A stretch of 20,218 bases of DNA from Marine Group I thaumarchaeote. Lineage in GTDB: Archaea; Thermoproteota; Nitrososphaeria; Nitrososphaerales; Nitrosopumilaceae. Within the stretch, counting starts at the first letter, position 1, and each line of letters starts with the position of its first letter. The stretch spans positions 556,577-576,794 of the forward strand of contig CP054849.1 of the NCBI GenBank assembly GCA_044358425.1. Reading direction: 5' to 3'. The notes below the pieces were generated by a model. That model made no database searches, was not told the origin of the DNA, and was given only the letters and a program-made list of their open reading frames with translations. Shown in pieces: positions 882 through 20,218 of this stretch. The position numbers were made by a program, and so were the translations under genes.

Positions 882-3437
882 TTAACTCCAAAAGAATTCG
901 TCTAATCCTGTTTGTTTTGGTTTTCCTAAAATTGTATCAAAATCTAAATCCATAGATGATGTAATTTGTTCTAATGTTGATTCTAAAAACTCCATGTATT
1001 TTTTAGAATCTATTTCTTCTTTTTTGGCTAATTCTACTGGTTTAACTCCTGGCTTGTTTAATATTTTGATAAATGAAATTTTATCTCCTTTTTTTAATTC
1101 TCTGATTGACTCTAATTGTTTTGCTGCTCTGATATGTTGAGGTATTGTTTTTACATATTCTGACGGTGCTTTACTTAACATTACATTAAATGTTAAATCC
1201 TCTAAAGGAATTTCTTTTGCTTCGACTTTTTTACCGCAATCTGCTATTTTTTCAGAAATCTGTTTTTTAGCTTTTACAAAATCTTCCATTGTTTTTACTT
1301 CTGATAGTACATCTAACAAATCAAAAAATAATTTTTTAATGAATCCTGGTGTGTGTGATTTTTTACCTGTTAGCCCTTTAACATCTACTTTTCCTGAATC
1401 TGTTACCCCTAAGTAATTTTTCTTTCTGTTACTTAGAACACAATATCTGTATGTCTTATCAATTTCTAAATCTACACCATGATCCGTTTTAGCTTGTTCT
1501 ATGAGTTTTTGAATTTGCTCTTCTGTTGGATTTTTAATAAATAATGAATCAGTATCCCCATACAAAACCTCAATTCCAGTTCCTTCACATTTTTTAATTG
1601 TCTCCAAAATTGTATACCTGCCAACAGCTGTTGTTGCTTCAGCTGCAGGTAGAAAATACAGTGGAAATATCTCTGCACCCATTACCCCATAACTTGCATT
1701 CAATATTACCTTGAGTGCTTGACTAACCACTGTGTATTGTTGTCTTTGTTCATCTGTTAATGTCTCCTTTTTTGATAGACTTTTGTAATAATTTACTCTC
1801 AAATCTCTCAACGAACCAATAATAATTGCTGTAAGGCCGTTATTTTTGGAACATGTCCAATGATTCGTTTGTGGTATAGAATTTTTTTTACATTCTTCAT
1901 GTGGACATCTTACTGTTTCATAAGATAGATTTCTTACTTTGATGATACTTGGATACAGACTTGCAAAATCCATTACAACCACCTTGAAATGAATTCCTTC
2001 TTTTGGCTCAACAACTAATCCTCCCCGATATTTTTTATCCTTGATTACTGCATCAGACATCACTCCTTCTGTTCTTTTTTGTAATTCTTCTCTTTTTGGA
2101 ATTAGTGCATTTCTTTTTCTGTGTTCATAATAAAGCAAACTTCTAATCCATTGCGAAACTCCCATTCTTGCAATGTCATCAATTGGCATTCTTCCAATTC
2201 TTGCAATGATGACAAGTAAGTTCATCAACAAATCTCCGTTGAAACTTGTTAACTCGTAAGTTAGTTGTGCATCATTGTAACAATAGTTTGCAGTTTGATA
2301 AAGGGACAATTTGTCAAAATCTAATCCATAATCAATTTTTTCTTTTCCAAGTAGTGCCTTTGATACACTATTTAGTGAAAAATCTGTATATGATTGACTG
2401 AATGCATAGATTTGAAATGAACGATTTGATAATGTTCTATACAAATCAATGTGTACTCCGTGTTTTAGGGTTGCAGAATCTCTCATCATGTATAATGGAT
2501 TATTCTCATTTGGAATTCCTAGTCGTTCTGCTCTGTTATACAAATAAGGTAAATCAAATTCATCCCCATTGTATGTGACTACAAATGGAAATTCTTCAAT
2601 TATCTTGAATGCATCAGCAATCATGTCTTTTTCTTTATCTAATTCATAAAATGTCACTTTGATATTTTCATCTAGTTCATTGTTTCCTTGCTCTGTTCCC
2701 TCTGTTTTGAGCACAAAAATTTGATCAAAACCATCACTTCCTTTGAGTCCAATAGCTGTGACTTTTTTTTCTGCAAGTTTTGGGTCTGGAAATCTCCCGG
2801 GATCAAACTCCACTTCAATGTCCACACTAAGTCTTTTTATTTTTGGAATTGGTTGATTTAGTAAATCTGCCCATTCTGAAATAAATTCTTTAAACTCTTC
2901 AGCATCTATCATGCTTTCACTGTCGACTTTATCCCACAACAAACTTTTTAGTGCAAGCTTTACTTCGTCTGAAATTTCCATATTATGTGGTTTTAGTAAT
3001 CCATTTGTAATCTCATAATATTTTCCAACAACTAATTGTCTGTCGTATAGGTATGTTTCATAATACTTGATATCTGATTCCCAAGTTTCAATTTGATTTC
3101 TAATACTTTCTCCATAATTTCCTCCAATTGAAAGTGGATTATCTACTACGATCTTTGATACCTCGATTTCCTCATCGTGAATATAGTCGTGTTTTTTTAC
3201 TGTTTTAATTTCTAAAACATCTTCTCTTTCTTGTAAAAAATCTAATTCTTCAGGAGTTAATTTTGAATAACAATATGGTTTGTGACCAATTTCATCTTTC
3301 CATAAAAATAATTTCTGTTGTGTTGGTTCATAAAATTTTAAAATTGCAGATTTACTTGGTCCATCATAGGTTGCAGAAACTAGCATTGATGGGAGCATTG
3401 TTTCCATTTTTTCAATCTGTGACACTTTGACTTGCAT
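882..3437 (-). CDS. polB: Family B DNA polymerase
   Basis: Exonuclease motifs DIEV, YNGDEFD and YCYND; polymerase motifs DFASLYPS, KVILNASYG, YGDTDS and KKNY; C-terminal PIP box QTGLDEFF. Confidence 0.98.
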   Translation of the reverse strand: MQVKVSQIEKMETMLPSMLVSATYDGPSKSAILKFYEPTQQKLFLWKDEIGHKPYCYSKLTPEELDFLQEREDVLEIKTVKKHDYIHDEEIEVSKIVVDNPLSIGGNYGESIRNQIETWESDIKYYETYLYDRQLVVGKYYEITNGLLKPHNMEISDEVKLALKSLLWDKVDSESMIDAEEFKEFISEWADLLNQPIPKIKRLSVDIEVEFDPGRFPDPKLAEKKVTAIGLKGSDGFDQIFVLKTEGTEQGNNELDENIKVTFYELDKEKDMIADAFKIIEEFPFVVTYNGDEFDLPYLYNRAERLGIPNENNPLYMMRDSATLKHGVHIDLYRTLSNRSFQIYAFSQSYTDFSLNSVSKALLGKEKIDYGLDFDKLSLYQTANYCYNDAQLTYELTSFNGDLLMNLLVIIARIGRMPIDDIARMGVSQWIRSLLYYEHRKRNALIPKREELQKRTEGVMSDAVIKDKKYRGGLVVEPKEGIHFKVVVMDFASLYPSIIKVRNLSYETVRCPHEECKKNSIPQTNHWTCSKNNGLTAIIIGSLRDLRVNYYKSLSKKETLTDEQRQQYTVVSQALKVILNASYGVMGAEIFPLYFLPAAEATTAVGRYTILETIKKCEGTGIEVLYGDTDSLFIKNPTEEQIQKLIEQAKTDHGVDLEIDKTYRYCVLSNRKKNYLGVTDSGKVDVKGLTGKKSHTPGFIKKLFFDLLDVLSEVKTMEDFVKAKKQISEKIADCGKKVEAKEIPLEDLTFNVMLSKAPSEYVKTIPQHIRAAKQLESIRELKKGDKISFIKILNKPGVKPVELAKKEEIDSKKYMEFLESTLEQITSSMDLDFDTILGKPKQTGLDEFFWS

Positions 3438-3441
3438 TTAA

Positions 3442-3993
3442 TCACTCATTTGTTTTGTATTTGCTAACTAACTCATTGGCCCATTTTCCAATTTTTTCTT
3501 TTTCCAAATGGACAACTTCTACTCCTGCTTCGTTTAACAAATCATAATCTGTTTCAGGATACGTATCCAGACAAACAAATTTTTTGATTCCGATAGTTAT
3601 TGCCATTTTAGTACATTCTAGGCACGGCACAAATGTTGTATACAAAATGGCGCCTTTTACTCCTGCCTCAATTCCTAAAATTGCACAATGCATTATTGCA
3701 TTGGCTTCTGCATGATTACACAAACAACGATCAAGTGATGCTCCTGATTCAATTTTACCTTCCATTCTAAGTTGGCATCTCTTACATCCTCCTTCAAAAC
3801 AATTTTTCACACCAGGTGGTGTTCCGTTGTATCCTGTTGCTAACTGTCTATGATCTCTGACAATCACTGCTCCAACTTGTCTAGTTATGCAATTAGAACG
3901 TAATTTTGCTAATTCAGCTTGTAACATAAAATATTCATCCCAGTTTGGTCTTTCAAAAGAATCATTCATACAAATTGTGTCTAATTGTTCCAT
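3442..3993 (-). CDS. dCMP deaminase / ComEB family
   Basis: RPNWDEYFM, VGAVIV, GYNG, HAEANAI and PCLEC zinc motifs. Confidence 0.93.
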   Translation of the reverse strand: MEQLDTICMNDSFERPNWDEYFMLQAELAKLRSNCITRQVGAVIVRDHRQLATGYNGTPPGVKNCFEGGCKRCQLRMEGKIESGASLDRCLCNHAEANAIMHCAILGIEAGVKGAILYTTFVPCLECTKMAITIGIKKFVCLDTYPETDYDLLNEAGVEVVHLEKEKIGKWANELVSKYKTNE

Positions 3994-4091: not shown

Positions 4092-4793
4092 ATGAAATTT
4101 AATTATCTTCTAATTGTTACAGTAGTTTCAATTTTCACTATTTCTGCAGTAGGTCAATCTGTTTATGGATATGGTGGTCCTCCTGAAAATAATAGTGCAA
4201 ATAATTATACTGTTGAAATTAATACTAATCAGGAATCTTACTTGCTAGGTGAATCTATTATTTTTTCAGGTTCTGTAAACAAATATGATGAGGATCGTTC
4301 TTTGAGAATCACTATTTTTGATTCTAGTAAAAATTTAATCAGTACTAAAAAGACACCTGTAGATACATATGGTAAATTCTCTCACTCTGTTGAATTAAAT
4401 GAAAAATTTTCTGATGGGAAATTTATAGTAAAGGCTCAATATGGTAATTCTAAATCAACTGTAAACACTTCATCATTTTTAATTGTCTCTGGAAATTCTT
4501 CCACAATGGAATCTAGTAATGAAATCCCTGTTTGGATTAAAAACAATGCAGGCTGGTGGGCAGATGGTTCCATAGATGATTCTTCATTTGTTCAAGGAAT
4601 TCAATTTCTAGTTCAAGAAGGATTTATGAAAATTCCTATTACCCAACAAGGTGATTCTACTGGGAGTAATGAAATCCCTGTTTGGATTAAAAACAATGCA
4701 GGCTGGTGGGCAGATGGTTCCATAGATGATTCTTCATTTGTTCAAGGAATTCAATTTCTAGTTCAAGAAGGATTTATGAAAATTACAAATTAG
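4092..4793 (+). CDS. Secreted protein with an Ig-like domain and two C-terminal thaumarchaeal 'IPxWIKNNAGWW' modules
   Basis: N-terminal signal peptide, beta-rich middle, two identical IPVWIKNNAGWWADGSIDDSSFVQGIQFLVQEGFMKI modules. Confidence 0.85.
   Translation: MKFNYLLIVTVVSIFTISAVGQSVYGYGGPPENNSANNYTVEINTNQESYLLGESIIFSGSVNKYDEDRSLRITIFDSSKNLISTKKTPVDTYGKFSHSVELNEKFSDGKFIVKAQYGNSKSTVNTSSFLIVSGNSSTMESSNEIPVWIKNNAGWWADGSIDDSSFVQGIQFLVQEGFMKIPITQQGDSTGSNEIPVWIKNNAGWWADGSIDDSSFVQGIQFLVQEGFMKITN
4515..4784 (+). repeat. Exact 120-bp intragenic direct repeat (4515-4634 and 4665-4784, period 150)
   Basis: Both copies read agtaatgaaatccctgtttgg...gatttatgaaaatt. Confidence 0.93.
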
Positions 4794-6405: not shown

Positions 6406-7911
6406 TTGACTGAATATATAGAAAAAGAATTCATCCAAAAAAATTCTGTTGAAAAACGAGATTATCAAATCAATCTTGCTAGTCAGGCAATCGATGAAAA
6501 TTGTATTGTTGTCTTACCCACTGGTCTTGGAAAAACAACTGTTGCATTACATGTAATTTCTGAATATTTGAAAAAGAAATCTGGAACCGTTTTATTTTTA
6601 GCTCCTACCAGGGTTTTAGTTAATCAGCATTTTGATTTTTTAAAAAAAAATCTAACTGTTGATGATATTGTCTTAATTACTGGTGAGGATTCTGTTGAAA
6701 AGCGTACTGATCTTTGGAATCATCGTATAATTTGTGCAACTCCTGAAGTTGCAAGAAATGATATGAATCACAATGTTGTTAAATCCACTCAATTCAATTT
6801 AGTAATTTTTGATGAAGTTCATAGAACTACAGGTGACTATGCTTATTCTAGTATTGCTGAGCATTTTGAAAATTCATCTACTCGTATTTTGGGAATGACT
6901 GCAACATTGCCTAGTGAACAAGAAAAAGCTACTGAAATTTTGAAAAGATTACAAATATCTGTTGTTGCAGAAAGAAATGAAAATAGTCCTGATGTAAAAC
7001 CTTACATTCAGGAAACTAATACTGAGTGGATAAACGTAGAACTTCCTATAGAGCTTAAATCTATTCAAAAATTATTAAAATCTGCATTAGATGAACGCTA
7101 TGATTTACTCAAAAAAAATGGCCTGCCATTAAATGATCAACAATCTCTTTCTTCACTGCTAAGACTGCGACCGTTTGTTTTATCTAAAAGTCGAAAATCT
7201 GCTAAACCTTTGTTTTCTGGAATTCGAATTCATTATGCACTAAATATTCTTGAAGCTCATGGTATTACCCCATTTTTACAGTTCTGTAAACGTGCGCAGG
7301 CAAAAAAGGGTGTTGGGGTAAAGGACTTGTTTGAACTTGATCCTAATTTTACAAAAGCACTGTCTTTAGCAAAGGAAGCAAAATCTAACGGTATTGAGCA
7401 TTCTAAAATTCCTAAACTAAAAGAAATTTTAAATTCAGTTCCTGGAAAAGCATTGATCTTTACTAGTTATCGTGATTCTGTAGATATGATTCATACTGAA
7501 CTTAACAAACTTGGAATTCCTGCTGGCATCCTAATTGGGAAAGCCGGTGATACTGGATTAAAACAAAAAAAGCAAATTGAAGTTGTACAGAAATTTAGAG
7601 ATGGTGAATTTCAGGTTTTAGTTGCAACTCGAGTTGGAGAAGAGGGATTGGATATTGCTGAAGTAAATCAAGTAATTTTTTATGACAATGTCCCAAGTTC
7701 AATTAGATTTATCCAAAGAAGGGGAAGAACTGGAAGAAAAGATACTGGAAAATTAGTTGTATTAATCGCTAAAGATACCATTGATGAAACTTACTATTGG
7801 ATTGGAAAAAGAAAAATTTCTGCTGCAAAGTCTATGGGGTCTAAAATGACTAAAGTTTTAGAAAAAAATAAAGATCCTTCTATAAAAACAGGGCTGGATG
7901 CGTTTATCTAA
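6406..7911 (+). CDS. Hef/FANCM-like (ERCC4-related) DEAH helicase lacking the nuclease domain
   Basis: RDYQ, LPTGLGKT, DEVH, MTAT, EEGLDI and QRRGRTGR motifs; only 501 aa; PIP-like tail KTGLDAFI. Confidence 0.92.
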   Translation: MTEYIEKEFIQKNSVEKRDYQINLASQAIDENCIVVLPTGLGKTTVALHVISEYLKKKSGTVLFLAPTRVLVNQHFDFLKKNLTVDDIVLITGEDSVEKRTDLWNHRIICATPEVARNDMNHNVVKSTQFNLVIFDEVHRTTGDYAYSSIAEHFENSSTRILGMTATLPSEQEKATEILKRLQISVVAERNENSPDVKPYIQETNTEWINVELPIELKSIQKLLKSALDERYDLLKKNGLPLNDQQSLSSLLRLRPFVLSKSRKSAKPLFSGIRIHYALNILEAHGITPFLQFCKRAQAKKGVGVKDLFELDPNFTKALSLAKEAKSNGIEHSKIPKLKEILNSVPGKALIFTSYRDSVDMIHTELNKLGIPAGILIGKAGDTGLKQKKQIEVVQKFRDGEFQVLVATRVGEEGLDIAEVNQVIFYDNVPSSIRFIQRRGRTGRKDTGKLVVLIAKDTIDETYYWIGKRKISAAKSMGSKMTKVLEKNKDPSIKTGLDAFI

Positions 7912-8531: not shown

Positions 8532-8855
8532 TTAAGGGGTGACCTTCTCTAATTTTTCATGGATTTTGTCGTAATATCCATTTTGTTCCAATGCTGGAAC
8601 ATAAAATGTAGCAGATATTGTGTCACCCACTTTAGCTTGGCAGTTTTCTACAACTACTGAATGCCCTAGTGCTGATTCTCCTACACAGCCAATCTCAGTT
8701 ATTGCGATGACTTGTACATCCTCAGTAACTGATGTTGGGACAATGTTCCATGGTGTAATTGTAAGCACCAAGATTACTGCCGTAGCGATTGAAATTATTG
8801 CTAAGAATTTCAATACTGGTGGTTTTTGTTGTGTTGTCTGTTGCATTGTAACCAT
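8532..8855 (-). CDS. Membrane-anchored hypothetical protein with a small beta domain and two Cys
   Basis: N-terminal TM helix, beta-rich body; TATA box and operator motif upstream. Confidence 0.75.
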   Translation of the reverse strand: MVTMQQTTQQKPPVLKFLAIISIATAVILVLTITPWNIVPTSVTEDVQVIAITEIGCVGESALGHSVVVENCQAKVGDTISATFYVPALEQNGYYDKIHEKLEKVTP

Positions 8856-8902
8856 TTGTATTAGTACAACTTTTTATTTAAAATAGTGGTAAGTATTGAT
8901 TA

Positions 8903-8914
8903 TAGTGCTAAAAA
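8903..8914 (-). promoter_or_regulatory. Operator copy 1 (TAGTGCTAAaaa on +)
   Basis: Exact core, 48 nt from ATG 8855; TTAAATA on the minus strand at 8881-8875. Confidence 0.85.
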
Positions 8915-9041: not shown

Positions 9042-9470
9042 TCAAAACTGAATTCCCTTCATGCGCTTTGAATAGTCATAATGAAATATTTTTTTTGGTG
9101 TAATTTCAATTGCAATTTCATTTTTTGAATGACTTAGTAGAAATTTTGATAATTTAGATTCTTTATCTCCTAGATATTTTTTAATTAAAATTTTCAATAT
9201 TTCTGGACCCTTGGATGGTATGATTTTAACAGTTCCTTCACCTCGTGAGCCTTTGTATGGGGGTTGATCTGCTGCTATTTCAAATCCACACGTGGGTTTA
9301 TTTTCCAAGTAATGAATAATTTTTGCAGTTTTTTGTGTTGCACAATAGATTTTTCCATTTATGTCAATATACCATAATGAAATAATTGATGGAGCTCCAT
9401 TGGGTTTGATGAATCCTATTCTAATTGGTATCTTTGTATCTGGGGCTAACTCTCTTTCTACGTATTGCAT
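9042..9470 (-). CDS. Pyridoxamine 5'-phosphate oxidase-like (FMN/F420 split-barrel) protein
   Basis: RIGFIKPNGAPSIISLWY...IYCATQKTAKIIHYLENKP...PYKG.RGEG...IEITPKKIFHYDY pattern; GAGGT SD-like element before the ATG. Confidence 0.8.
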   Translation of the reverse strand: MQYVERELAPDTKIPIRIGFIKPNGAPSIISLWYIDINGKIYCATQKTAKIIHYLENKPTCGFEIAADQPPYKGSRGEGTVKIIPSKGPEILKILIKKYLGDKESKLSKFLLSHSKNEIAIEITPKKIFHYDYSKRMKGIQF

Positions 9471-9539: not shown

Positions 9540-9551
9540 TAGTGCTAACAA
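9540..9551. promoter_or_regulatory. Operator copy 2 (TAGTGCTAACAA), centred between divergent promoters
   Basis: About 20 nt from TTCATATA (minus, 9520) and from TTAAAATA (plus, 9571); 49 nt from ATG 9600. Confidence 0.85.
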
Positions 9552-9599: not shown

Positions 9600-10280
9600 A
9601 TGAAAAAATTATTTTTATTAGTTTTTGTTATAATGTTAATTTCTATATCTCCTGCATATGGTCATAAATTAATTAGCCATGATGACTCTCATCGTGATTT
9701 TGATTCTGCATTAGTAATACCTGATCATAAAATTTCATGGGCAATTTATGAGAATCTAGGCATGGAAGAATCCAAGTTTTATACTTTTGATGCAAAAAAA
9801 GGTGATTCGTTTTATGCAAGTATTGTAATTCCAAATCTTGAAGGATTGGAAAGATATTCTCCTTCATTAATTCTAATGAATGATGATTTGTATAAAGGAG
9901 ATGGACCTTCTGCAAATATAGAATCCAGTGTTCAAAAATTTCTTTATGAAGGAGATTATCCTGGAAATGAATTTTACGAACCTTTTGGTCAGGTGACTTA
10001 TTGGGAGAGACAGGAGGTTAATACAATTATTCCTGAAGATGGACAATATTTTATTTTAGTATTAGATGAGAAAAATCAAAGTGGAAAATATAGTTTAGCT
10101 ATTGGTACTATTGAGGATTTCTCTGGTGCTGATTTTTTTACTATACTACCTAAAGCTTGGTTTGATACAAGAATTTTTGTAAATGATTATGCTGGACTTG
10201 GTATTGGAATTTCCATACTTGTTGGAATTCCTGTCATGTTATCGTTAATAATTTTGAGAAATAAAATATTTAGAAGATAA
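9600..10280 (+). CDS. Secreted, C-terminally membrane-anchored hypothetical protein
   Basis: Signal peptide ending AYG, His-rich mature N-terminus HKLISHDDSH, C-terminal TM helix with a basic tail. Confidence 0.8.
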   Translation: MKKLFLLVFVIMLISISPAYGHKLISHDDSHRDFDSALVIPDHKISWAIYENLGMEESKFYTFDAKKGDSFYASIVIPNLEGLERYSPSLILMNDDLYKGDGPSANIESSVQKFLYEGDYPGNEFYEPFGQVTYWERQEVNTIIPEDGQYFILVLDEKNQSGKYSLAIGTIEDFSGADFFTILPKAWFDTRIFVNDYAGLGIGISILVGIPVMLSLIILRNKIFRR

Positions 10281-10307
10281 GAAATAATAAAATTATTTTA
10301 AAATATT

Positions 10308-10490
10308 CTATTTTTTCTTGCTTCTAGGTTTTGTTCTTAACACTGCTTTGCAACAAATACATCTGACATCTTCGGAATCTAGAAAAATACCACAAAATGT
10401 GCAACGCTTTTGTCCTATCTCATACCTGATTTTATTAGGTACTGATTCAGCTTCATGTCTTTTGCATATGTTTCTACAAGTTCTACCCAA
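10308..10490 (-). CDS. Small Cys-rich (zinc-finger-like) basic protein
   Basis: CxxxC, CxxC and CICC, then LRTKPR; TTG start overlaps the tfb stop by 8 nt. Confidence 0.75.
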   Translation of the reverse strand: MGRTCRNICKRHEAESVPNKIRYEIGQKRCTFCGIFLDSEDVRCICCKAVLRTKPRSKKK

Positions 10491-11394
10491 CTTTTACATC
10501 TCCTATCTTGTTGACAATTTCTTTTCTTCTTTCTCTTATGGTCACAGCACTAATTCCTGATATTTTGGATATTTTTAGCTGTGATACTTTTTCAGCATTT
10601 GTTGTTGCGGCTAGATGTATTGCAGCTGCTGCCATAGCCATTGGATTTTTACTTGTGGATACGTGCTTTTTTGCACACATATCAAGTATTTTGAAGCTAA
10701 GTCTTTGTGTTTTTTCTGACAAAGTTAATCCCTTTGCGATTCTGGTGACAAATTCTGATGGTGTGTATGACTCAGGTGATATGTCCATCTCTTTTGCAAG
10801 GAATCTATATGTTCTTTGTAGAACTTTTTTCTTAATGTTTGCTGCATCAGAAATATCTTGTAGTGTTCTAGGTGTATCTGTAATTCTACATGTTGCATAA
10901 ATTGTAGCAGATAACATAGCTGCTGTTGATCTTCCTGCAAGTATTTTTCTTGCTGCAATTTTTCTAAACAAATATGCACTTTCTTCTACTACTGATTCAG
11001 GCAGACCTAGCTTTGAACTTATTGCATCAAGTAAAGTGAATGCTTTTTGAAATGATTTTGATGTCACAGCTGAGCGACTGTTTCTGTCCCACATTCTTAG
11101 TCTGTAAAACATTCGTCTGTTTTCTACTGACAGTGATTTGCCTGTCACGTCCTTATCTTTAGCTTCAATTAATGTAGACAGTCCCATGTCTATCATCTTC
11201 AAAGATCTTTTTGCTCCAACTCTTGAATTATTTTGATAATCTGCTGAACTTCCTCCTGACATTTCAGCACCTAAATCAATAATTGGTTCTGATGATACTA
11301 TTCCGCAGTTACTACATGCAATCTCCCCAGTATGTATGTCTGTAACTATTTCATGTTTCTTACAATTTTTTTGATGTACTAATTCAGTTAACAT
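10483..11394 (-). CDS. tfb: Transcription initiation factor B (TFB paralogue)
   Basis: Zn ribbon IVTDIHTGEIACSNCGIV, GLST, RLRMW, cyclin repeats with GRS...IYATCR...PRTL and ISAVTIRER. Confidence 0.95.
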   Translation of the reverse strand: MLTELVHQKNCKKHEIVTDIHTGEIACSNCGIVSSEPIIDLGAEMSGGSSADYQNNSRVGAKRSLKMIDMGLSTLIEAKDKDVTGKSLSVENRRMFYRLRMWDRNSRSAVTSKSFQKAFTLLDAISSKLGLPESVVEESAYLFRKIAARKILAGRSTAAMLSATIYATCRITDTPRTLQDISDAANIKKKVLQRTYRFLAKEMDISPESYTPSEFVTRIAKGLTLSEKTQRLSFKILDMCAKKHVSTSKNPMAMAAAAIHLAATTNAEKVSQLKISKISGISAVTIRERRKEIVNKIGDVKVG

Positions 11395-11442
11395 GATAAC
11401 TTTATGCTTTCATTTTATATAACAAATCAAAAAATTTTTTAC

Positions 11443-11454
11443 TAGTGCTAATAT
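11443..11454 (-). promoter_or_regulatory. Operator copy 3 (tfb promoter)
   Basis: TAGTGCTAA at 11443-11451, 49 nt from ATG 11394; TTATATA on the minus strand at 11422-11416. Confidence 0.88.
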
Positions 11455-11505
11455 CTCTAGTCATTAAAAATTATTTTCTACCTTTACCACTAGGAAATTG
11501 TGTTT

Positions 11506-11517
11506 TAGTTAGCACTA
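11506..11517 (+). promoter_or_regulatory. Operator copy 4 (TAGTTAGCACTA)
   Basis: Full consensus, 49 nt before ATG 11566; variant TTACCACTA at 11484-11492. Confidence 0.88.
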
Positions 11518-11565: not shown

Positions 11566-11928
11566 ATGCCACATATTGTGTTGGATCGACAAATCAACCT
11601 CTTTGATTTCTCAATTTTGTTTAAACCATTATTTCAAAAATCTCCATTAATCAAAATTCATAAAATGTATGTTGATTCTGAAGGCTCTAATGCATTATTT
11701 TCAACAGTTGTAATAGATGATTCTCATCATGAATTCTTTATTCAAGTAATGACAAGTGATGAAAGAACTACAATTAGATTGCTCCCTATAACTGATCCAA
11801 AAAAGACTGATGCTGTAAAACAATCGTTAGCAAATTTATGTTTAGAAATACAAAGATATTATCCTGATATGAGAGTTATAAAATCAAATTTATGGGACTA
11901 CTTGAAAATCCCTATAACAAATGAGTAA
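11566..11928 (+). CDS. Hypothetical protein
   Basis: 120-aa ORF overlapping the next gene by 8 nt; no family recognised. Confidence 0.75.
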   Translation: MPHIVLDRQINLFDFSILFKPLFQKSPLIKIHKMYVDSEGSNALFSTVVIDDSHHEFFIQVMTSDERTTIRLLPITDPKKTDAVKQSLANLCLEIQRYYPDMRVIKSNLWDYLKIPITNE

Positions 11929-12367
11929 ATTCAATCTTGTTAAAAAAAGTAATCTTCATCGTGATTTAATTTTTAAAATTAGTACAGATGTTGAAAACTT
12001 TCATAACGTTATGCCTGAATATTTCAAATCATTAAAAATTATTCAAAATTCCTCAAATGAAAAAATAGTTTTAGAATCTATAGATTTTCTTGGTAGAAAA
12101 ATAGAAATTAAAACAAAACATGTGATTATTCCACCAAATTTACATGAGGTATTCATTTTAAATGGTCCTGCAAAAGGTACTTCTTTTATTGAAAAATACG
12201 AATCTAACCCAACTGGTACTGATATTTCTATCTCTGTTGATTTGAAATTAAATGGATTTTTAAAATTAATTCCATTCCTGAAATTATTATTGTTTAAGAA
12301 AATGAATTCGGTAATGTCTGAGTTTATTGTATGTGCTGAATCCTATTCAAAGTCTGTTTCAAAATAG
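11921..12367 (+). CDS. SRPBCC / START-like (polyketide cyclase family) protein
   Basis: 148 aa; IFKISTDVENFHNVMPEYFKS, ILNGPAKG, GTDISISVDL and a C-terminal helix. Confidence 0.75.
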   Translation: MSKFNLVKKSNLHRDLIFKISTDVENFHNVMPEYFKSLKIIQNSSNEKIVLESIDFLGRKIEIKTKHVIIPPNLHEVFILNGPAKGTSFIEKYESNPTGTDISISVDLKLNGFLKLIPFLKLLLFKKMNSVMSEFIVCAESYSKSVSK

Positions 12368-12376
12368 TTAGCACTA
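12365..12376 (+). promoter_or_regulatory. Operator copy 5 (AATAGT-TAGC-ACTATT when extended)
   Basis: Full consensus with 6-bp perfect arms (12363-12378); TTAAATA at 12397; ATG at 12425, 49 nt away. Overlaps the upstream stop codon. Confidence 0.9.
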
Positions 12377-12424: not shown

Positions 12425-13771
12425 ATGAGTCCTCCAACCATTGTTATTGGTGCAGGCGTGGGTGGCTTGACTACTGGTGCTATTTTGGCAGAAAAAGGTC
12501 ATAGTGTGATGATTTTAGAAAAATCTTCAAAACTAGGTGGAAGAACTGCTGCAATGGAATACAAAAACCATATTTTGGATAATGGTTTTCACATAATGCC
12601 TTTTTACAAAAAATCAGCAATTTTTACAATTATGAAGAATTTGGGAATTGAATCTCGTTTGAAGCTTGCAAAAGTTGATGATATTGCATTTTATGCTGAA
12701 ACTGGTTTTCATATATATCCAAAAGGAATGGGTGATCTGTTAAAATTATCATTAATCCCATTTAAGAGCAGAATTAGACTTCTAAAACTATTATTGCCTT
12801 TAGCATTTTCATCTATGGAAAAAACAGAATCCTGGGATGATGTACCTTTGACTAAAATTACACATGATTTAGATGCTGACACAAATGCATTTTTTGAAGC
12901 AGTATGTATGTTAGCTTTTGCAGATACAGCTGATCATATTTCTTTAGGTGAATTTGCCAGAACCATTATTAGAGCAAATCCGTTTAAAGGTGGAACAAGT
13001 GAATTTGCTTATCCAGATGGAGGTGGCTATGATTCCATCTGTAAGGTTCTTGGTGAATATATTTTAGAAAAAAATGGTGATATTCAGACAAAACAATCTG
13101 TAAAAAAAGTCATTGTAGAAAATTCTAAGGTTACTGGAGTTATTGTAAAGGATTCTTCAAATTCAGAAAAACTTATTCCAACAAATTCTGTAGTGATTTC
13201 CTATCCTGCTTATACTGCATTGAATCAACTATTTGATGAAGATGTAATTGACAGAAAATTTGTTCAAAAAATTGATAAATTGAATAAGACTACTTCTGTA
13301 GTTGAAGTTCATTTTGCATTAAATTCTCAAATTGATACTCGTCAGGTAGTTTTTCCTGTTGGTGATAACTATGTCACAAAAGGTATTTTTTTCATATCTA
13401 ATATCACTCCCTCTGTATCTCCTAAAGGTGAGCATTTGATCATTGCAGGAACTCCTGTATTGCCTTCTGAAACTGAGGATTCTGAAAAAATTAAAAGTAT
13501 TGTGAGTAAAATGAAACAAGAAATATCGTCAATCTACCCGAAATTTGATTCTTCATTATTGTGGGAACGTCCAATGGCCTGGAAATTAGTTGAATCTGTA
13601 GTAAAGGAACCTGGAAAAGTTTGGAAATCAAAAATGCCTCATCAGATACCTGGAATTGATGGCTTATTTTTTGTGGGTGATTCAACTATTAGTTATGGAA
13701 TTGGAACTGACTCTGCTGCACACAGTTCTATTTTGTGTACTCCAAAAATTGAATCTTTTTTAAATTCCTAG
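12425..13771 (+). CDS. FAD-dependent oxidoreductase, phytoene dehydrogenase / amine oxidase superfamily
   Basis: VIGAGVGGL...ILEKSSKLGGR...LDNGFH; YPDGG; C-terminal IDGLFFVGD. Start placed at ATG 12425. Substrate unknown. Confidence 0.88.
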   Translation: MSPPTIVIGAGVGGLTTGAILAEKGHSVMILEKSSKLGGRTAAMEYKNHILDNGFHIMPFYKKSAIFTIMKNLGIESRLKLAKVDDIAFYAETGFHIYPKGMGDLLKLSLIPFKSRIRLLKLLLPLAFSSMEKTESWDDVPLTKITHDLDADTNAFFEAVCMLAFADTADHISLGEFARTIIRANPFKGGTSEFAYPDGGGYDSICKVLGEYILEKNGDIQTKQSVKKVIVENSKVTGVIVKDSSNSEKLIPTNSVVISYPAYTALNQLFDEDVIDRKFVQKIDKLNKTTSVVEVHFALNSQIDTRQVVFPVGDNYVTKGIFFISNITPSVSPKGEHLIIAGTPVLPSETEDSEKIKSIVSKMKQEISSIYPKFDSSLLWERPMAWKLVESVVKEPGKVWKSKMPHQIPGIDGLFFVGDSTISYGIGTDSAAHSSILCTPKIESFLNS

Positions 13772-14622
13772 TTAGTTAATGGTATTTTTCTAATAATTTT
13801 TGGAATCTCTTCTAAACTCATATCGCCTACCACATTACCCTCAAATTTTGGTGGGTTGTCTTGTTGTAATGCATATCCTCCGATTAAAATTGGTGTTTTA
13901 CAATGTTCTCTAATTTTTTTTGCTAGTCTTTGTCCTGCAGATACGTTATCTTCAATTGTTATTGAAATTAAAATTACATCTGGTTTTTTCATATTGATAA
14001 ATTCGATAATTGAGTCTGTTGGAATGGATGTTCCCATATTGAAAACTTTGAAACCTTTTATTGTAAGATATGTTTCCAACACATCACATCCCATGTGGTG
14101 CTCCTCTCCAACTGGTACGCATAACATTACTTTCTTTTTATTTCCTGTACCTGACACTTGATCCATGATAATTTTTACTAAGGTTTGTGCTACATTACTG
14201 GCAACATGTTCTGTTGCAATTGCTAATTTACCATTTTCCCAGTCTGAACCTATTTTGCTCATTACAGGTCTTAGAATCTTGTCAAAAAAGTCTGGTACAT
14301 TAAATATGTCCACGTAATTTTTATAAATTTTAATACACTCATCCAGGTTACCATCTGTCAATTTTTTAAATAATTGTTGTTTTGATTTTTTTGTCGCATC
14401 TTCTCTTTTTTTTATGTCTTCTGGATTATATGATGCCAAAACTGATAGGATTTTGGGATCATTTCTGAATTCTTCTGGAATGTCATCTTTTATTACTTCT
14501 GATGCTTTTCCTAGATATTTGACAATCTCCTGTTTTGATGTGCTCTTTTTTGAATCCCAGACACTTTTTACTAAATAGAGATATTGATCTGATTTGACTT
14601 TTTTAGCCCTAATGTAGACCAT
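13768..14622 (-). CDS. Cobalamin-binding regulator, CarH/LitR-like sensor domain with an atypical N-terminal domain
   Basis: W-ENGKLAIAT-EH (Wx9EH), GEEHHMG (ExHxxG), Rossmann tail ISIT...ILIGG. Start reassigned to MVYIRAKK (14622) because a TATA box and the motif occupy 14643-14682. Confidence 0.88.
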   Translation of the reverse strand: MVYIRAKKVKSDQYLYLVKSVWDSKKSTSKQEIVKYLGKASEVIKDDIPEEFRNDPKILSVLASYNPEDIKKREDATKKSKQQLFKKLTDGNLDECIKIYKNYVDIFNVPDFFDKILRPVMSKIGSDWENGKLAIATEHVASNVAQTLVKIIMDQVSGTGNKKKVMLCVPVGEEHHMGCDVLETYLTIKGFKVFNMGTSIPTDSIIEFINMKKPDVILISITIEDNVSAGQRLAKKIREHCKTPILIGGYALQQDNPPKFEGNVVGDMSLEEIPKIIRKIPLTN

Positions 14623-14670
14623 TAAAATTCCTAATTTTTTCGATATATAACTAATGGTAATCATGACTAC

Positions 14671-14682
14671 TAGTGCCAATCT
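14671..14682 (-). promoter_or_regulatory. Operator copy 6 (one mismatch, TAGTGCCAA), promoter of the B12-binding regulator
   Basis: 49 nt from ATG 14622; TTATATAT on the minus strand at 14650-14643. Confidence 0.8.
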
Positions 14683-14696
14683 CTTCTAAATTTAAT

Positions 14697-14708
14697 TTCT
14701 TAGCACTA
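14697..14708 (+). promoter_or_regulatory. Operator copy 7
   Basis: TTAGCACTA at 14700-14708; TTAAATA at 14729; ATG at 14757, 49 nt away. Confidence 0.88.
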
Positions 14709-14756: not shown

Positions 14757-14954
14757 ATGGCAGGAACAGAAGAACAAGAATGGGCTAACCTTCTTGCAGA
14801 AATCTTTGACAAACTTACACAAAAACACGCCGCAATTACTTATGAGTTTGACAATCTAGAAATGGCTGGTAAGATTATGAAAGATAAGCAAGTTGTCCCA
14901 ACTGGTACAGTTTCCCTAAGTGGAAAACTAACCATTACAGCAAAAGAAAAATAG
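14757..14954 (+). CDS. Small hypothetical protein
   Basis: 65 aa, first gene of a tightly packed three-gene operon. Confidence 0.8.
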   Translation: MAGTEEQEWANLLAEIFDKLTQKHAAITYEFDNLEMAGKIMKDKQVVPTGTVSLSGKLTITAKEK

Positions 14955-14955
14955 A

Positions 14956-15333
14956 GTGTGGTTGACAATGAAAGATTTTGATCTACCCGCCAATTTTTTA
15001 TCTTATCTAGATAAAGGTAAATTAAGCATCACATGCAATGATGAACCTACGATTAATTTTCGTGTTGAAGGAAGTACAAAAATTATAGATGTAATTGATA
15101 TTCCAATTAAAATAAATAAAATGCCTGGATTTCTAAAACAGCTTTCTGAAGCAAAAGAACTTGCAAAAGATTTGGCAAAGAAAAAAACAACTATTGAAGT
15201 ACGTTTGAAAGGTGATACTGTATTGAAACTAGGTGAAAAAGCAAATCCAAAATTAGCAAAAATTGTAACACGAAGTAGTGATATTGAAATCACTGACATA
15301 AGAAAATTGAAAAAATTGAGTGATGTATTTTAA
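14956..15333 (+). CDS. Hypothetical basic protein (start may be ATG 14968)
   Basis: ORF fills the gap between its neighbours with 1-2 nt spacing. Confidence 0.75.
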   Translation: MWLTMKDFDLPANFLSYLDKGKLSITCNDEPTINFRVEGSTKIIDVIDIPIKINKMPGFLKQLSEAKELAKDLAKKKTTIEVRLKGDTVLKLGEKANPKLAKIVTRSSDIEITDIRKLKKLSDVF

Positions 15334-15335
15334 AA

Positions 15336-16763
15336 ATGTCTGAACTTTCTACACAAACTAAACCCTACGATATTTTAGTTACTGGTGCAAGTGGTTTTAT
15401 TGGAAAAAAACTACTTAATCAATTAACTAATTCTGGATTTACTGTAACTGCAATGTCCAGATCAAAATACCCTGATTCAGAGAAAATCAAGCGTGTACAG
15501 GCTGATGCATTTGATGTTGATTCTTTAACTAAAGCTACTGAGGGAATTACAACTGCATTTTACTTACTTCATTCTATGGAAGGCTCAAAAAAGGAATGGG
15601 GTGAATTTGCAAATAGGGAAAAACAGCAGGCTCAAAATTTTCTTAAAGCTGCAACTGCATCTGGCGTAAAGAGAATCATATATCTCGGTGGATTAGTCAA
15701 CGAAGGTCTAGAATTATCAAAACATATGAAAAGTAGGCATGATGTGGGCAAGATTTTGGCAAGTGGAAATATTCCTGTCACTGAATTAAGAGCATCTGTT
15801 ATTGTTGGAGCTGAAGGTGGTTCTTATGCCATGCTTAGATATCTTGTTGAAAGATTACCTTTGATGGTTTGTCCAAAATGGGTTAAATCACAAACACAAC
15901 CAATTGCAGTTGAAAATGTTGTGGATTATTTGATAGGTTCGATGAAAAATCCAGAAACTACAGGAAAAATTTTAGAAATTGGTGGACCTGATATCATGAC
16001 ATATGAACAACTAATGAGATTATACTCTTCCATTCTCAATAGAAATCTAACCGTAATTCAGATTCCATTTTTGACCCCTAGACTTTCTTCTTATTGGATT
16101 GATTTAGTTACTCCAGTTAAAGCCTCTCTAGCAAGACCTCTAGTTGATAGTTTAGTACATGATTCTGTAGTTAAAGATGATACAGCACAAAAATTGATTC
16201 CAATTCAATTGGCACACATGACTCAAGCAATTCAAACTGCTAGAGAAGAAGCAAAAGTTTTCAACTCCATTTCTAAATCAGAGGGAGAAAAAACTTCGTA
16301 TAAAATGAATCAACAAATTCTTCTAATTACTTTATGTGCCATGGCTTTCATTGGTACAACATACTATTGGTTGGATGATCGAAGTGATGTTTGGCAGATT
16401 ACTTGGATAGTTGGTTCCGTAATTTGGTATGCTTCAATTTTATTTGCTATTTCATTTGTGAGACAAAAAGCCAGGTTGGGTTATTTGATAGGTGGAATTT
16501 TGGCTTGGGTTACTCTGGCATTTTGGTTATTTGATAACTTTCATGTTGTATTTGAGCTCTCATTGGTCGCATCTGAACCTAGTTTGGAAATTACAATTAG
16601 AAATTTCATTGGTGCAGCAATTGCTGGATTGGCTATATTCTCCTCACATAATGTATTTCATAAAGTACGAGTTTACCAAGCCCGAGGAAAACCTGTATCT
16701 GAATCTGCCTCTTCAGAGGTGCCTGAAGGTGCTAGACCGGTTTATAATACTGACTTTTCATAA
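15336..16763 (+). CDS. YbjT-like atypical SDR / NAD(P)-dependent epimerase fused to a four-TM C-terminal domain
   Basis: ILVTGASGFIG, YLLHSM, IIYLGGL, LSKHMKSR, TQPIA, TPRLSSYW; about four hydrophobic helices after residue 325. Confidence 0.85.
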   Translation: MSELSTQTKPYDILVTGASGFIGKKLLNQLTNSGFTVTAMSRSKYPDSEKIKRVQADAFDVDSLTKATEGITTAFYLLHSMEGSKKEWGEFANREKQQAQNFLKAATASGVKRIIYLGGLVNEGLELSKHMKSRHDVGKILASGNIPVTELRASVIVGAEGGSYAMLRYLVERLPLMVCPKWVKSQTQPIAVENVVDYLIGSMKNPETTGKILEIGGPDIMTYEQLMRLYSSILNRNLTVIQIPFLTPRLSSYWIDLVTPVKASLARPLVDSLVHDSVVKDDTAQKLIPIQLAHMTQAIQTAREEAKVFNSISKSEGEKTSYKMNQQILLITLCAMAFIGTTYYWLDDRSDVWQITWIVGSVIWYASILFAISFVRQKARLGYLIGGILAWVTLAFWLFDNFHVVFELSLVASEPSLEITIRNFIGAAIAGLAIFSSHNVFHKVRVYQARGKPVSESASSEVPEGARPVYNTDFS

Positions 16764-16977: not shown

Positions 16978-17499
16978 TTATTTTTGATTTTCTAAAATTT
17001 TGAATATATTTCCATTTGCTGGATTAGAATATAGTAGAAAGTATGTTTGTCCGGCAAGATATGTTTTATTAAATCTGAATACTATTGGATGAATTTCTGC
17101 AAGGATTTCTCCGACTGTGATTGTTTCATTTTTATAATTTTTTAATAAATCAAAAAATTTGTCTCTTTCTAGATGAGTAAACTCCTTGGAAAAAAAACCA
17201 AAAATATGCATTATTACGTTGCTATGTGTTTTGATTGTAGGTTTAAACTGTAAACATAAACTGAGATTTTTTTCATACTCTACTAACATTTCTGAAAATT
17301 TTACTTTTTTATTACTGGCCACAATCCTGCCTAATACTTTGAGTTCTTCTTGATTGTGAGCCATAATCAAAAACTTATTCATTGCTTGAAATTCAACTAA
17401 TTCCTTTATTTTGTTACTTTTTTTTACGTTTTGAAATCTTTCTAGAACAAATTCTTTGATTTCTTTTTGAGTTAACACTTTGTGATAGTTTTGCATCAT
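16978..17499 (-). CDS. YbgA family (DUF1722) protein, stand-alone
   Basis: NKFLIMAHNQ...LGRIVA...THSNVIMHIFGFFSK...YLAGQTYF matches the DUF1722 pattern as I recall it. Confidence 0.8.
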   Translation of the reverse strand: MMQNYHKVLTQKEIKEFVLERFQNVKKSNKIKELVEFQAMNKFLIMAHNQEELKVLGRIVASNKKVKFSEMLVEYEKNLSLCLQFKPTIKTHSNVIMHIFGFFSKEFTHLERDKFFDLLKNYKNETITVGEILAEIHPIVFRFNKTYLAGQTYFLLYSNPANGNIFKILENQK

Positions 17500-17580: not shown

Positions 17581-17592
17581 TTGTTAGCACTA
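17581..17592. promoter_or_regulatory. Operator copy 8 (TTGTTAGCACTA)
   Basis: About 20 nt from minus-strand TTTATATG (17562-17555) leading to the ybgA-like gene. Confidence 0.83.
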
Positions 17593-17604: not shown

Positions 17605-17616
17605 ATATTAGCACTA
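17605..17616 (+). promoter_or_regulatory. Operator copy 9
   Basis: TTAGCACTA at 17608-17616; TTAAATA at 17637; ATG at 17666, 50 nt away. Confidence 0.88.
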
Positions 17617-17665: not shown

Positions 17666-18613
17666 ATGAAAACTCTCATGACTGCAATTTCAACAATTGC
17701 CGTATTGCTGCTTGTTGGCTCAAGTGTATCATCAGTTTACGCTGATGTTCCAGCTTGGGTTAAGAACAATGCAGGCTGGTGGGCAGAAGGAACGATTGAT
17801 GACGATTCATTTGTTCAAGGAATTCAATTCTTGATCAAAGAAAAAATCATGGAAATTCCTCCAACCACACAAGGAGTAAGTTCTAGTAATGAAATCCCAT
17901 CCTGGATTAAAAACAATGCAGGCTGGTGGGCAGAAGGAACGATTGATGACGATTCATTTGTTCAAGGAATTCAATTCTTGATCAAAGAAGGAATCATGAA
18001 AGTATTACCTGAGCAAGCTAGTGATGTAGCAAAAGCTGCTACTGAAAAGGCATTTGCTAAAAAGGAACAAAAATCCATATCATCAAGCGATGACCCTGTA
18101 ATTGCTTCTCTTGAAGCTGAATTAGAGAAATGTTCAGAAATAGTCAAAGCATACAAGAGACTTGATTGTGAAAAACCAATTAAACAAGAAATTCTTGTTC
18201 ATACATACAAAACTGGCGCTGAATTAATGCAAGTAGGACCAATTAATTATTATTGGTTTGGTGTAAATTCTGAGGGTAATAGCTTTGAAATTAGTCCTAC
18301 AGGACAACCAATTTTGAATATCAGAATGTTGGCCGATAACACTTCTTCAGATATTGTTAGTTTGAATTGTACAAGTCCTTCAATTTGTAACTATGATGTT
18401 TGGGACGGTTCAAAATCCTTCAAATATTCTGGAATGGACTTTACTAGTGGACAAATCAATCTAAACCCTGGAACTGCTAAGGAGTTCAATATTTTGTTTG
18501 GTCCAAATATTGGATATGGTGGAACTGAATTTGAATATGATCCTTCAAAGACATATACTTTCAGAATCAATGAACCATTTGGTAGTATGGATGTTCACCT
18601 AGACTTAGAATAA
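17666..18613 (+). CDS. Secreted protein with two 'PxWxKNNAGWW' modules and a Cys-containing C-terminal beta domain
   Basis: Signal peptide ending VYA; two modules; C-terminal domain paralogous to the next gene. Confidence 0.85.
   Translation: MKTLMTAISTIAVLLLVGSSVSSVYADVPAWVKNNAGWWAEGTIDDDSFVQGIQFLIKEKIMEIPPTTQGVSSSNEIPSWIKNNAGWWAEGTIDDDSFVQGIQFLIKEGIMKVLPEQASDVAKAATEKAFAKKEQKSISSSDDPVIASLEAELEKCSEIVKAYKRLDCEKPIKQEILVHTYKTGAELMQVGPINYYWFGVNSEGNSFEISPTGQPILNIRMLADNTSSDIVSLNCTSPSICNYDVWDGSKSFKYSGMDFTSGQINLNPGTAKEFNILFGPNIGYGGTEFEYDPSKTYTFRINEPFGSMDVHLDLE
17765..17989 (+). repeat. Exact 78-bp intragenic direct repeat (17765-17842 and 17912-17989)
   Basis: aacaatgcaggctggtgggcagaaggaacg...ttgatcaaagaa occurs twice, period 147. 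Confidence 0.9.
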
Positions 18614-18658: not shown

Positions 18659-18670
18659 TAGTTAGCACTA
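18659..18670 (+). promoter_or_regulatory. Operator copy 10 (TAGTTAGCACTA)
   Basis: Full consensus; TTATATA at 18691; ATG at 18719, 49 nt away. Confidence 0.9.
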
Positions 18671-20011: not shown

Positions 20012-20218
20012 TTAATCGTAAACCATCAAGTCTTTTTCTTCTAATAGACTATGAATTTGGTGAACTGAACGATGAATTTCTTTCTCAAGTTTAGCTCCAA
20101 CACAAACAAGTTTTCCTGATGCAAAAATCAAGATGACTGTCTTTGGGTCAAGCATTCTGTGAATAAGACCTGGGAACTGTTCAGGTTCGTACATACTTCT
20201 TGGTAAAGTTCTTGCTGC
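20012..20218 (-). CDS. tbp: TATA-box binding protein, 3' part (5' end outside the window)
   Basis: AARTLPRSMYEPEQFPGLIHRMLDPKTVILIFASGKLVCVGAK is the second TBP repeat. Confidence 0.95.
   Translation of the reverse strand, partial: AARTLPRSMYEPEQFPGLIHRMLDPKTVILIFASGKLVCVGAKLEKEIHRSVHQIHSLLEEKDLMVYD

Follow-up and report, generated by a model that had tools for sequence, protein, structure and literature searches.

An accessory TFB operon carries the promoter box of a putative B12-dependent light-sensor regulon in marine ammonia-oxidising archaea

The window analysed here, a stretch of 20,218 nucleotides (nt) from a Marine Group I thaumarchaeote (assembly GCA_044358425.1, contig CP054849.1, positions 556,577-576,794 of the forward strand), carries at 10308-11454 a compact unit of two genes that encode a transcription factor B (TFB) paralogue and a small zinc protein. 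The TFB gene (10483-11394, minus strand) starts with an ATG at 11394 and encodes 303 amino acids (aa) with two cyclin/TFIIB repeats. It is followed by the gene of a basic 60-aa protein with seven Cys and a TTG start (Zn60; 10308-10490, minus strand), and the TFB stop and the Zn60 start share 8 nt (10483-10490). The TFB promoter consists of a distal box, TTAGCACTAG, at 11442-11451 (minus strand; core TTAGCACTA at 11443-11451) and of a TATA box, TTATATAA, at 11415-11422 on the same strand, 20 nt past the distal box and with its first T 28 nt before the ATG. The initial annotation had described an exact operator 49 nt upstream of tfb and an overlap with a Cys-rich 60-aa gene, and both descriptions hold: the last base of the core and the A of the ATG are 49 nt apart, and the overlapping gene has the 8 shared nt and seven Cys given above. 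We interpret the unit as a tfb-zn60 operon, probably leaderless, that carries the box of a regulon of Zn60 and a CarH-like B12 sensor encoded nearby, in which the sensor would respond to light and TFB would form a second tier; we put the probability of this interpretation at roughly 0.6. The observations that follow give good support to three points: tfb-zn60 belongs to the regulon, it is conserved, and it is linked to the sensor.

Copies of the box with at most one mismatch occur 16 times in the window as compared to 4.1 expected (standard deviation 2.1), a number reached in none of 100 shuffles, and nine of the 25 exact copies in the genome (1.36 Mb, about 31% G+C, 203 kb or 15% of it masked) lie inside the window. 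The promoters share a fixed layout and orientation of box, 20 nt, TATA, 28 nt and ATG. Expressed as the composite pattern TTRSCACTA-N20-21-TTWWAT, this arrangement was found 13 times in the genome and its reversed control not once, and at 10 of the 13 matches an open reading frame (ORF) of at least 40 aa has its ATG 48-50 nt past the box. Among the stored loci, the ATG lies at +28 to +30 from the first T of TATA in 72 distinct sites, which is the geometry of leaderless transcripts, and 45 of these 72 possess a second, proximal repeat (seven or more of 10 positions identical to TTAGCACTAG) that is located 10-11 nt before TATA, on the position of the B recognition element (BRE). About ten promoters of this genome carry the box, the sensor's own among them. 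The idea that the proximal repeat serves the new TFB as a BRE of a special kind was ruled out, given that the same repeats are present in the sensor-bearing, TFB-less genomes G064, G082 and G099.

The encoded TFB is clearly a homologue of TFB/TFIIB, although a divergent one. Pfam TFIIB matched in two stretches (E 3.6e-33, 113.9 bits versus a cut-off of 23.6 bits), which places the protein in the family on its core repeats, while Zn_Ribbon_TF (Pfam) stayed under its 29-bit cut-off with 26.6 bits and NCBIfam PRK00423 reached 254 bits over residues 7-297, below a cut-off of 384. The ribbon reads CxxH...CxxC in place of the four-ligand CxxC...CxxC of conserved paralogues, and the first CxxC is lost throughout the clade to which this TFB belongs, the other 13 members retaining at most one Cys of the first knuckle. 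In the alignment, the GPEWRSF B-reader of conserved paralogues is replaced in the clade, and the recognition helix of the C-terminal helix-turn-helix (HTH) reads ISAVTIR(D/E)R(A/T)K as opposed to VTEVTIRNRYK. In a tree of 69 TFBs (best matches and all paralogues of six genomes, minus two rows from unpublished genomes), the window copy falls with an end branch of 0.5 into a long-branched clade of 14 rows (SH-aLRT 98). This clade is nested in an accessory group of 35 rows (SH-aLRT 99) and is separate from the conserved clades with short branches, which are represented in every genome. That ammonia oxidisers possess several TFB paralogues, as the initial annotation had assumed, was borne out by genome searches and by the available parts of PMC12448741.

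Our comparison covered 121 Nitrosopumilaceae genomes from 27 genera, in which related genomes are non-independent samples and three genomes flagged as unpublished (G077, G092, G093), devoid of sensor, TFB orthologue and pattern, were counted in totals only. Orthologues of the TFB with at least 55% identity were found in 12 of the 121 genomes (the present one, five of g4, four of g22 and one each of g21 and g10), and in none of the six other genomes of the same genus. A housekeeping identity of this TFB is refuted by the patchy distribution, the separate clade, the length of the end branch and the changed motifs; it is an accessory, patchy and fast-evolving paralogue. The site is kept by the orthologues as well: the pattern occurs on the same strand and no more than 300 nt upstream in 12 of the 14 clade members versus none of 58 other TFBs (two of these from unpublished genomes). 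At most orthologous loci, a small zinc-ribbon ORF stands ahead of TFB and has the box 49-50 nt before it, while the window has no such ORF and its box precedes TFB directly. The position of the box before tfb itself thus applies to the window and has to be modified for most orthologues, where the box precedes the upstream ORF. This first gene of the TFB operon (CxxC...CxxC, 49-67 aa; L004:1343-1516, plus strand, with equivalents in L002-L008, L010, L011, L013 and L016) might supply in trans the ribbon that the TFB clade has lost. One locus of the clade, in genome G091 (L009, G091:C89:83044-86916), combines the TFB with box-bearing neighbours, has a one-mismatch box off-pattern before TFB and lacks Zn60 after it.

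The initial annotation had named co-occurrence of this TFB clade with the B12 sensor as a check, and the two do meet in 10 of the 12 TFB-bearing genomes, with a distance of 0.3-5.7 kb in all ten genomes that hold both. Within g22, four genomes have both and two have neither; in g27, the TFB operon and the sensor are on separate contigs and the box is still kept at the TFB operon. The sensor itself is present in 54 of the 121 genomes, and these contain on average 4.07 matches of the box and TATA pattern, with at least two in 42 of the 54. In contrast, the mean in the 67 sensor-less genomes is 0.34, with at least two matches in only five of them, which is the level of the reversed-pattern control (means of 0.20 in sensor-bearing and 0.45 in sensor-less genomes). 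The same sensor-dependent contrast is also seen within genera. The box is thus found essentially only in genomes holding the sensor, and the largest box sets belong to the TFB-bearing ones (6-14 matches versus a median of 3).

The sensor of the window (13768-14622, minus strand; 284 aa from the ATG at 14622) consists of an N-terminal three-stranded beta sheet, a helical bundle with the Wx9EH motif and a B12-binding domain of the Rossmann type. It matched B12-binding and B12-binding_2 in Pfam, and its best NCBIfam match is CarH (7e-15; 55 bits at a cut-off of 400 bits). Both W128, E138 and H139 of Wx9EH and E173, H175, G178, S220, T222, G248 and G249 of ExHxxG-x41-SxT-x25-GG are invariant in 25 sequences. 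The signature of CarH photoreceptors is given in the accessible parts of PMC9304148 as Wx9EH plus D/ExHxxG-x41-SxT-x22-27-GG, and the sensor carries it completely. A MerR-type winged-helix domain was matched neither in Pfam nor in NCBIfam, and residues 2-39 are predicted to form three beta strands (AlphaFold/AF2, pLDDT 87). The sensor promoter (14651-14679, minus strand) contains a distal box, TTGGCACTAG, at 14670-14679 and a proximal one, TTACCATTAG, at 14651-14660 that abuts TATA, with the ATG 49 nt past the distal box. A second sensor paralogue (L135:2451-3314, minus strand, corresponding to G000:C1:815950-816813) has 34% identity and keeps ExHxxG; judged by its sequence it is CarA-like, because W and EH of Wx9EH are missing. 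Its neighbours, at L135:10-342 and L135:410-961, are the C-terminal part of a DNA photolyase (FAD_binding_7, 5e-39) and a 183-aa gene that carries the box and belongs to no known family. In another genome of the same genus (G038; L113, G038:C1:1498384-1501563), the sensor is reduced to fragments of approximately 100 aa seen as two overlapping tblastn pieces, next to which Zn60 is intact, and four box and TATA sites are left in the genome.

Zn60 contains 16 K/R versus 6 D/E, and its seven Cys are invariant. Orthologues with 68-81% identity directly follow 10 of the 11 remaining TFB orthologues that reach 55% identity (tblastn), and 17 columns are invariant across 27 Zn60 orthologues; because of this conservation, we regard Zn60 as a real gene. 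It is predicted to adopt a short helix and a zinc-ribbon-like hairpin (AF2, pLDDT 83). No match was obtained in Pfam, NCBIfam or the sequences of the PDB, and the ESM Atlas returned only Nitrososphaerota clusters without a name. Members of the Zn60 family occur in all 121 genomes with 1-34 copies each. Among the 30 closest relatives, taken one per genome, 11 are located after a TFB of the clade, five directly after and nine directly before the sensor, and five have neither TFB nor sensor within 1.5 kb. The zinc protein was originally seen as the coupled partner of TFB, and the overlap of the two genes is indeed there; the partnership is not specific to TFB, however, as Zn60 adjoins the sensor in 14 genomes without this TFB. 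A general coupling of the Zn60 family to TFBs was ruled out, with family genes near only one of 58 other TFB genes. Gene order reads NmrA <-> sensor > Zn60 in g17, NmrA <-> sensor > [Zn-ribbon ORF] > TFB > Zn60 in G003 and G046, and secreted protein > Zn60 > sensor in g27 and g3. By this synteny, Zn60 is the ancestral neighbour of the sensor, and in some lineages a TFB cassette lies between them and looks inserted. Two predictions of a sensor-Zn60 complex (alignments A3 and A1), run without controls, scored 0.00 and are evidence in neither direction. In one protein, P0001 (382 aa; same frame G024:C9:6628-6807), a Zn60 domain (45% identity) is joined by a membrane helix to a secreted NNAGWW-repeat protein. 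The secreted part is homologous in full (47% identity, E 1e-95) to the box-bearing protein encoded at 17666-18613 in the window, and the fusion ties Zn60 to secreted members of the regulon.

Contigs from marine RNA libraries (four libraries from four studies) cover both TFB and Zn60, and the junction between the two genes is bridged by X1 record 3 (9777-11357) and X6 record 26 (10316-11064). On the TFB side, contigs end at 11357, 11374 and 11286, with none listed beyond the ATG at 11394, and those of the operon beginning at 14757 start at 14768-14839. These ends are compatible with leaderless transcripts, a weak hint at most. The k-mer depth was higher for TFB and Zn60 than for the sensor in all four runs, but contig depth cannot rank genes and we draw nothing from it, nor from uncovered stretches.

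Several other genes of the window carry the box. On the plus strand, a copy at 11509-11517, with the one-mismatch copy TTACCACTA at 11484-11492, occupies the divergent promoter of a 120-aa/148-aa gene pair (11566-12367). Further plus-strand copies precede a gene resembling FAD-dependent amine oxidases and phytoene desaturases (box at 12368-12376, ATG at 12425) and an operon of a 65-aa, a 125-aa and an NmrA-like protein (box at 14700-14708, operon at 14757-16763). On the minus strand, a 107-aa membrane-protein gene (8532-8855) has its box at 8903-8911 and a proximal TTACCACTA at 8884-8892, and a box at 9540-9548 lies 70 nt before a PPOX-class (F420-type) gene of 142 aa (9042-9470), a spacing that is off-pattern. 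Two secreted NNAGWW-repeat proteins are preceded by plus-strand boxes, the first (ATG 17666) by two, at 17584-17592 and 17608-17616, and the second (ATG 18719) by one at 18662-18670. Their genes contain repeat copies (17738-18004 and 19199-19462; 66-82% identity) related to those of another secreted-protein gene (4092-4793), in which identical 120-nt copies at 4515-4634 and 4665-4784 represent NNAGWW repeat units. DUF1722 genes in bacteria are frequently linked to photolyase genes; one DUF1722 gene is located in the island (16978-17499, minus strand), and a box-bearing fusion of 2-thiouracil desulfurase and DUF1722 was found elsewhere in the genome (L134:1926-2894, plus strand). The window flanks encode a family-B DNA polymerase (882-3437), a dCMP deaminase (3442-3993), a DEAD/Hef-like helicase (6406-7911) and the C-terminus of the TATA-binding protein (TBP; 20012-20218), and the box is absent at all four of these flank genes.

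How such a regulon might work can be sketched from signature residues, promoter architecture and analogy, from which we infer a light-sensitive B12 protein, a dark-state operator and a TFB that redirects transcription. Because of its complete Wx9EH plus ExHxxG-x41-SxT-x25-GG signature, the sensor is proposed to bind adenosylcobalamin and to sense light. In the dark, its oligomers would sit on direct repeats about 19 bp apart, and where the proximal repeat covers the BRE, occupancy would block initiation until light frees the oligomers. The TFB promoter, with only the distal box present, may be leakier or otherwise controlled. Once made, TFB would build initiation complexes of altered promoter preference and thereby add a second tier, a preference suggested by the differences in its BRE-recognition helix, B-reader and zinc ribbon from conserved paralogues. 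Taken together, marine ammonia-oxidising archaea might have a B12 light-sensing transcription system of new design, with a CarH-like module on a non-MerR beta sheet and a basic zinc-ribbon partner that pair on direct repeats over and upstream of the BRE and, in some lineages, drive an alternative TFB with changed BRE-recognition and RNA polymerase-contact elements. We propose this complete design only tentatively.

A number of observations weigh against the interpretation of tfb-zn60 as a light-controlled second tier of the sensor regulon. The search pattern was taken from the present genome itself. The proximal repeat is missing in 10 of the 12 TFB-operon promoters, including that of the window, and the mechanism of BRE occlusion is therefore least clear at the very promoter in question; a distal box approximately 50 bp upstream is also compatible with the site of an archaeal activator. 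The RNA contigs show no start, strand or level, and a contig spanning two genes does not prove a single transcript. As for the parts that may contact DNA, Foldseek returned nothing at E <= 0.001 for Zn60 in the PDB apart from generic zinc ribbons outside that limit, and no significant match for the sensor N-terminus, for which the top result of a wide VIA-align search, to ribosomal bS16-like chains, had an undistinctive Z of 4.5. The two-tier cascade inferred in the initial annotation, in which the sensor induces a dedicated TFB that acts in the manner of a sigma factor, finds partial support. Most sensor-bearing genomes (44 of 54) lack this TFB, and a cascade would therefore be an add-on and not the core design. 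Conversely, the sensor was not found, even by profile, in two of the 12 TFB-bearing genomes, G091 (99% complete) and G009 (72% complete), which are also the two clade members without a canonical box. With one zinc ligand gone, the TFB of this clade could just as well be weakened or act as an inhibitor.

Possible, though on balance unlikely, is that the box is an upstream activating site at which the sensor and Zn60, bound approximately 50 bp upstream, recruit TBP and TFB and switch the TFB operon on, with a sign or light state perhaps opposite to that of CarH. Ptr2 and TFB-RF1, for example, are archaeal activators with binding sites immediately upstream of the BRE, and the strict orientation of the box, its fixed distance upstream of TATA and the predominance of TFB-operon promoters with only a distal box and nothing over BRE or TATA (10/12) would suit such a site. 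However, 45 of 72 promoters, including that of the sensor, have the second repeat exactly on the BRE, which is the place of a repressor. Moreover, every characterised CarH covered by the accessible parts of PMC9304148 is a dark-state repressor on tandem direct repeats.

A role of the TFB as a passenger, which shares the promoter box of a variable island but has no regulon of its own, seems unlikely to us, be it as a redundant spare or, given the degenerate zinc ribbon, as a competitor that dampens general transcription when expressed. Its patchiness (12/121 genomes and 0/6 in the remainder of its genus), the long branches, the clade-wide loss of the first zinc-knuckle CxxC and the many sensor-bearing genomes that manage without it would all be expected of a passenger, as would a second tier whose motif is not known. 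Yet in at least five genera the clade persists with its frame intact, with both cyclin repeats present and with an HTH helix that is consistently altered rather than decayed. The box has also been kept where the operon is unlinked from the sensor (g27), and it is the TFB-bearing genomes that own the largest box sets.

A pairing of TFB and Zn60 as factor and anti-factor, similar to extracytoplasmic function (ECF) sigma factors and their zinc anti-sigma factors, with Zn60 keeping TFB inactive until a signal arrives, appears improbable. The start/stop overlap is kept in 11 of the 14 clade members, and in the P0001 fusion, a single-pass membrane protein, the Zn60 domain would face the cytoplasm, which is also the arrangement of anti-sigma factors. 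The motif of zinc anti-sigma factors (ZAS), HxxxCxxC, is absent from the Zn60 sequences, and the strong basicity of Zn60 suits nucleic-acid binding. Nor does the distribution agree with an anti-factor, as orthologues adjoin the sensor in the 14 genomes devoid of this TFB and family genes are near just one of the 58 other TFBs. The translationally coupled carQRS light operon of M. xanthus, with sigma factor, anti-sigma factor and antirepressor, gives a precedent for such a pair in the parts of PMC8156234 available to us. Finally, an origin of the box as a random AT-rich word, or as a general promoter element without a specific regulator, can practically be dismissed: short words do recur between genes in a genome of such low G+C, but none of the 100 shuffles reached the observed count, the reversed control gave 0 versus 13 matches, the 67 sensor-less genomes are at background level and the box is absent at 58 of 58 other TFB promoters.

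To our knowledge, no archaeal circuit with an induced alternative TFB has been well studied apart from the Orc1-2/TFB3 circuit of the Sulfolobales. According to the available parts of PMC6061795, PMC6101594 and PMC6101591, Orc1-2 acts on TFB3 in a circuit that resembles the proposed one in its stress-linked regulator, in a short promoter motif shared by a gene set and in an inducible TFB paralogue as a further activator; the role of TFB3 in the UV/DNA-damage response of Sulfolobus, cited in the initial annotation, is confirmed there (PMC6101591, PMC6101594). The two differ in that TFB3 is truncated, consisting of a zinc ribbon and a coiled coil without core repeats, and acts with TFB1 (PMC6101594), while the window TFB is full-length with a zinc-poor ribbon and is thus not of the TFB3 type. 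Furthermore, the regulator is Orc1/Cdc6 in the Sulfolobales and a candidate B12-binding protein here, phylum, motif and stimulus are different, and the window circuit is a predicted one. Halobacterium employs several TFB paralogues as global regulators (cited in PMC12448741), and N. maritimus switches its TFB in biofilms (PMC12448741). Ammonia oxidisers have several TFBs, the dominant one of which shifts with conditions, and the window TFB would be a further paralogue tied to conditions. In the text available, neither case comes with an upstream sensor or a promoter motif; for the window, in contrast, a conserved cis-element and a candidate sensor have been defined.

The closest bacterial counterpart, CarH/LitR, shares with the sensor the Wx9EH and B12-binding motifs, the best NCBIfam match and sites at its own promoter. 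It also shares tandem direct-repeat operators of about 10-11 bp, some promoters having one good and one degenerate copy, as far as described in the accessible sections of PMC9304148. Similar, too, is the light-related regulon, with DUF1722 and the 2-thiouracil-desulfurase-DUF1722 fusion, the phytoene-desaturase-like oxidase and a photolyase beside the sensor paralogue. In contrast, CarH/LitR as portrayed in the same sections has a MerR winged helix with an RxWERRY recognition helix, for which the archaeal sensor has a three-stranded beta sheet instead, and a repeat spacing of 11 bp, as opposed to about 19 bp at a TATA/BRE promoter. Unlike CarH/LitR, the window system also has a constant small zinc protein as a companion and an initiation factor among its targets. 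The light response of M. xanthus (carQRS, encoding the ECF sigma factor CarQ, the anti-sigma factor CarR and the antirepressor CarS, together with CarA/CarH; PMC8156234, available in part) is similar in that a repressor of the B12 type acts together with an alternative initiation factor and a small accessory protein, and in that genes are translationally coupled. Its sigma pathway runs parallel to CarH and is triggered by singlet oxygen (PMC8156234), whereas the initiation-factor gene of the window itself carries the box of the sensor. CarS, as characterised in that text, is an acidic DNA mimic, in contrast to the basic, Cys-rich Zn60, and the two have no sequence relationship.

A literature search, in which coverage of B12-photoreceptor reviews was incomplete, returned no such sensor, box, TFB link, light sensor or light regulon for ammonia-oxidising archaea. 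The locus brings together a 10-bp box whose promoter geometry is fixed, a protein that is a candidate B12 photoreceptor, a zinc-protein partner and a box-bearing accessory TFB, and would be a rare case of an alternative TFB whose upstream control is defined in cis and conserved across genera. Should the TFB prove inert or redundant, the regulon and the pair of sensor and Zn60 remain the main result. Nitrification zones in the ocean are shaped by light inhibition of ammonia-oxidising archaea, and the sequences suggest that a transcription cascade in these organisms may be under the control of light. If true, this would be the first cascade from a photoreceptor to a basal transcription factor in Archaea and would provide a molecular handle on the light response of nitrifiers.

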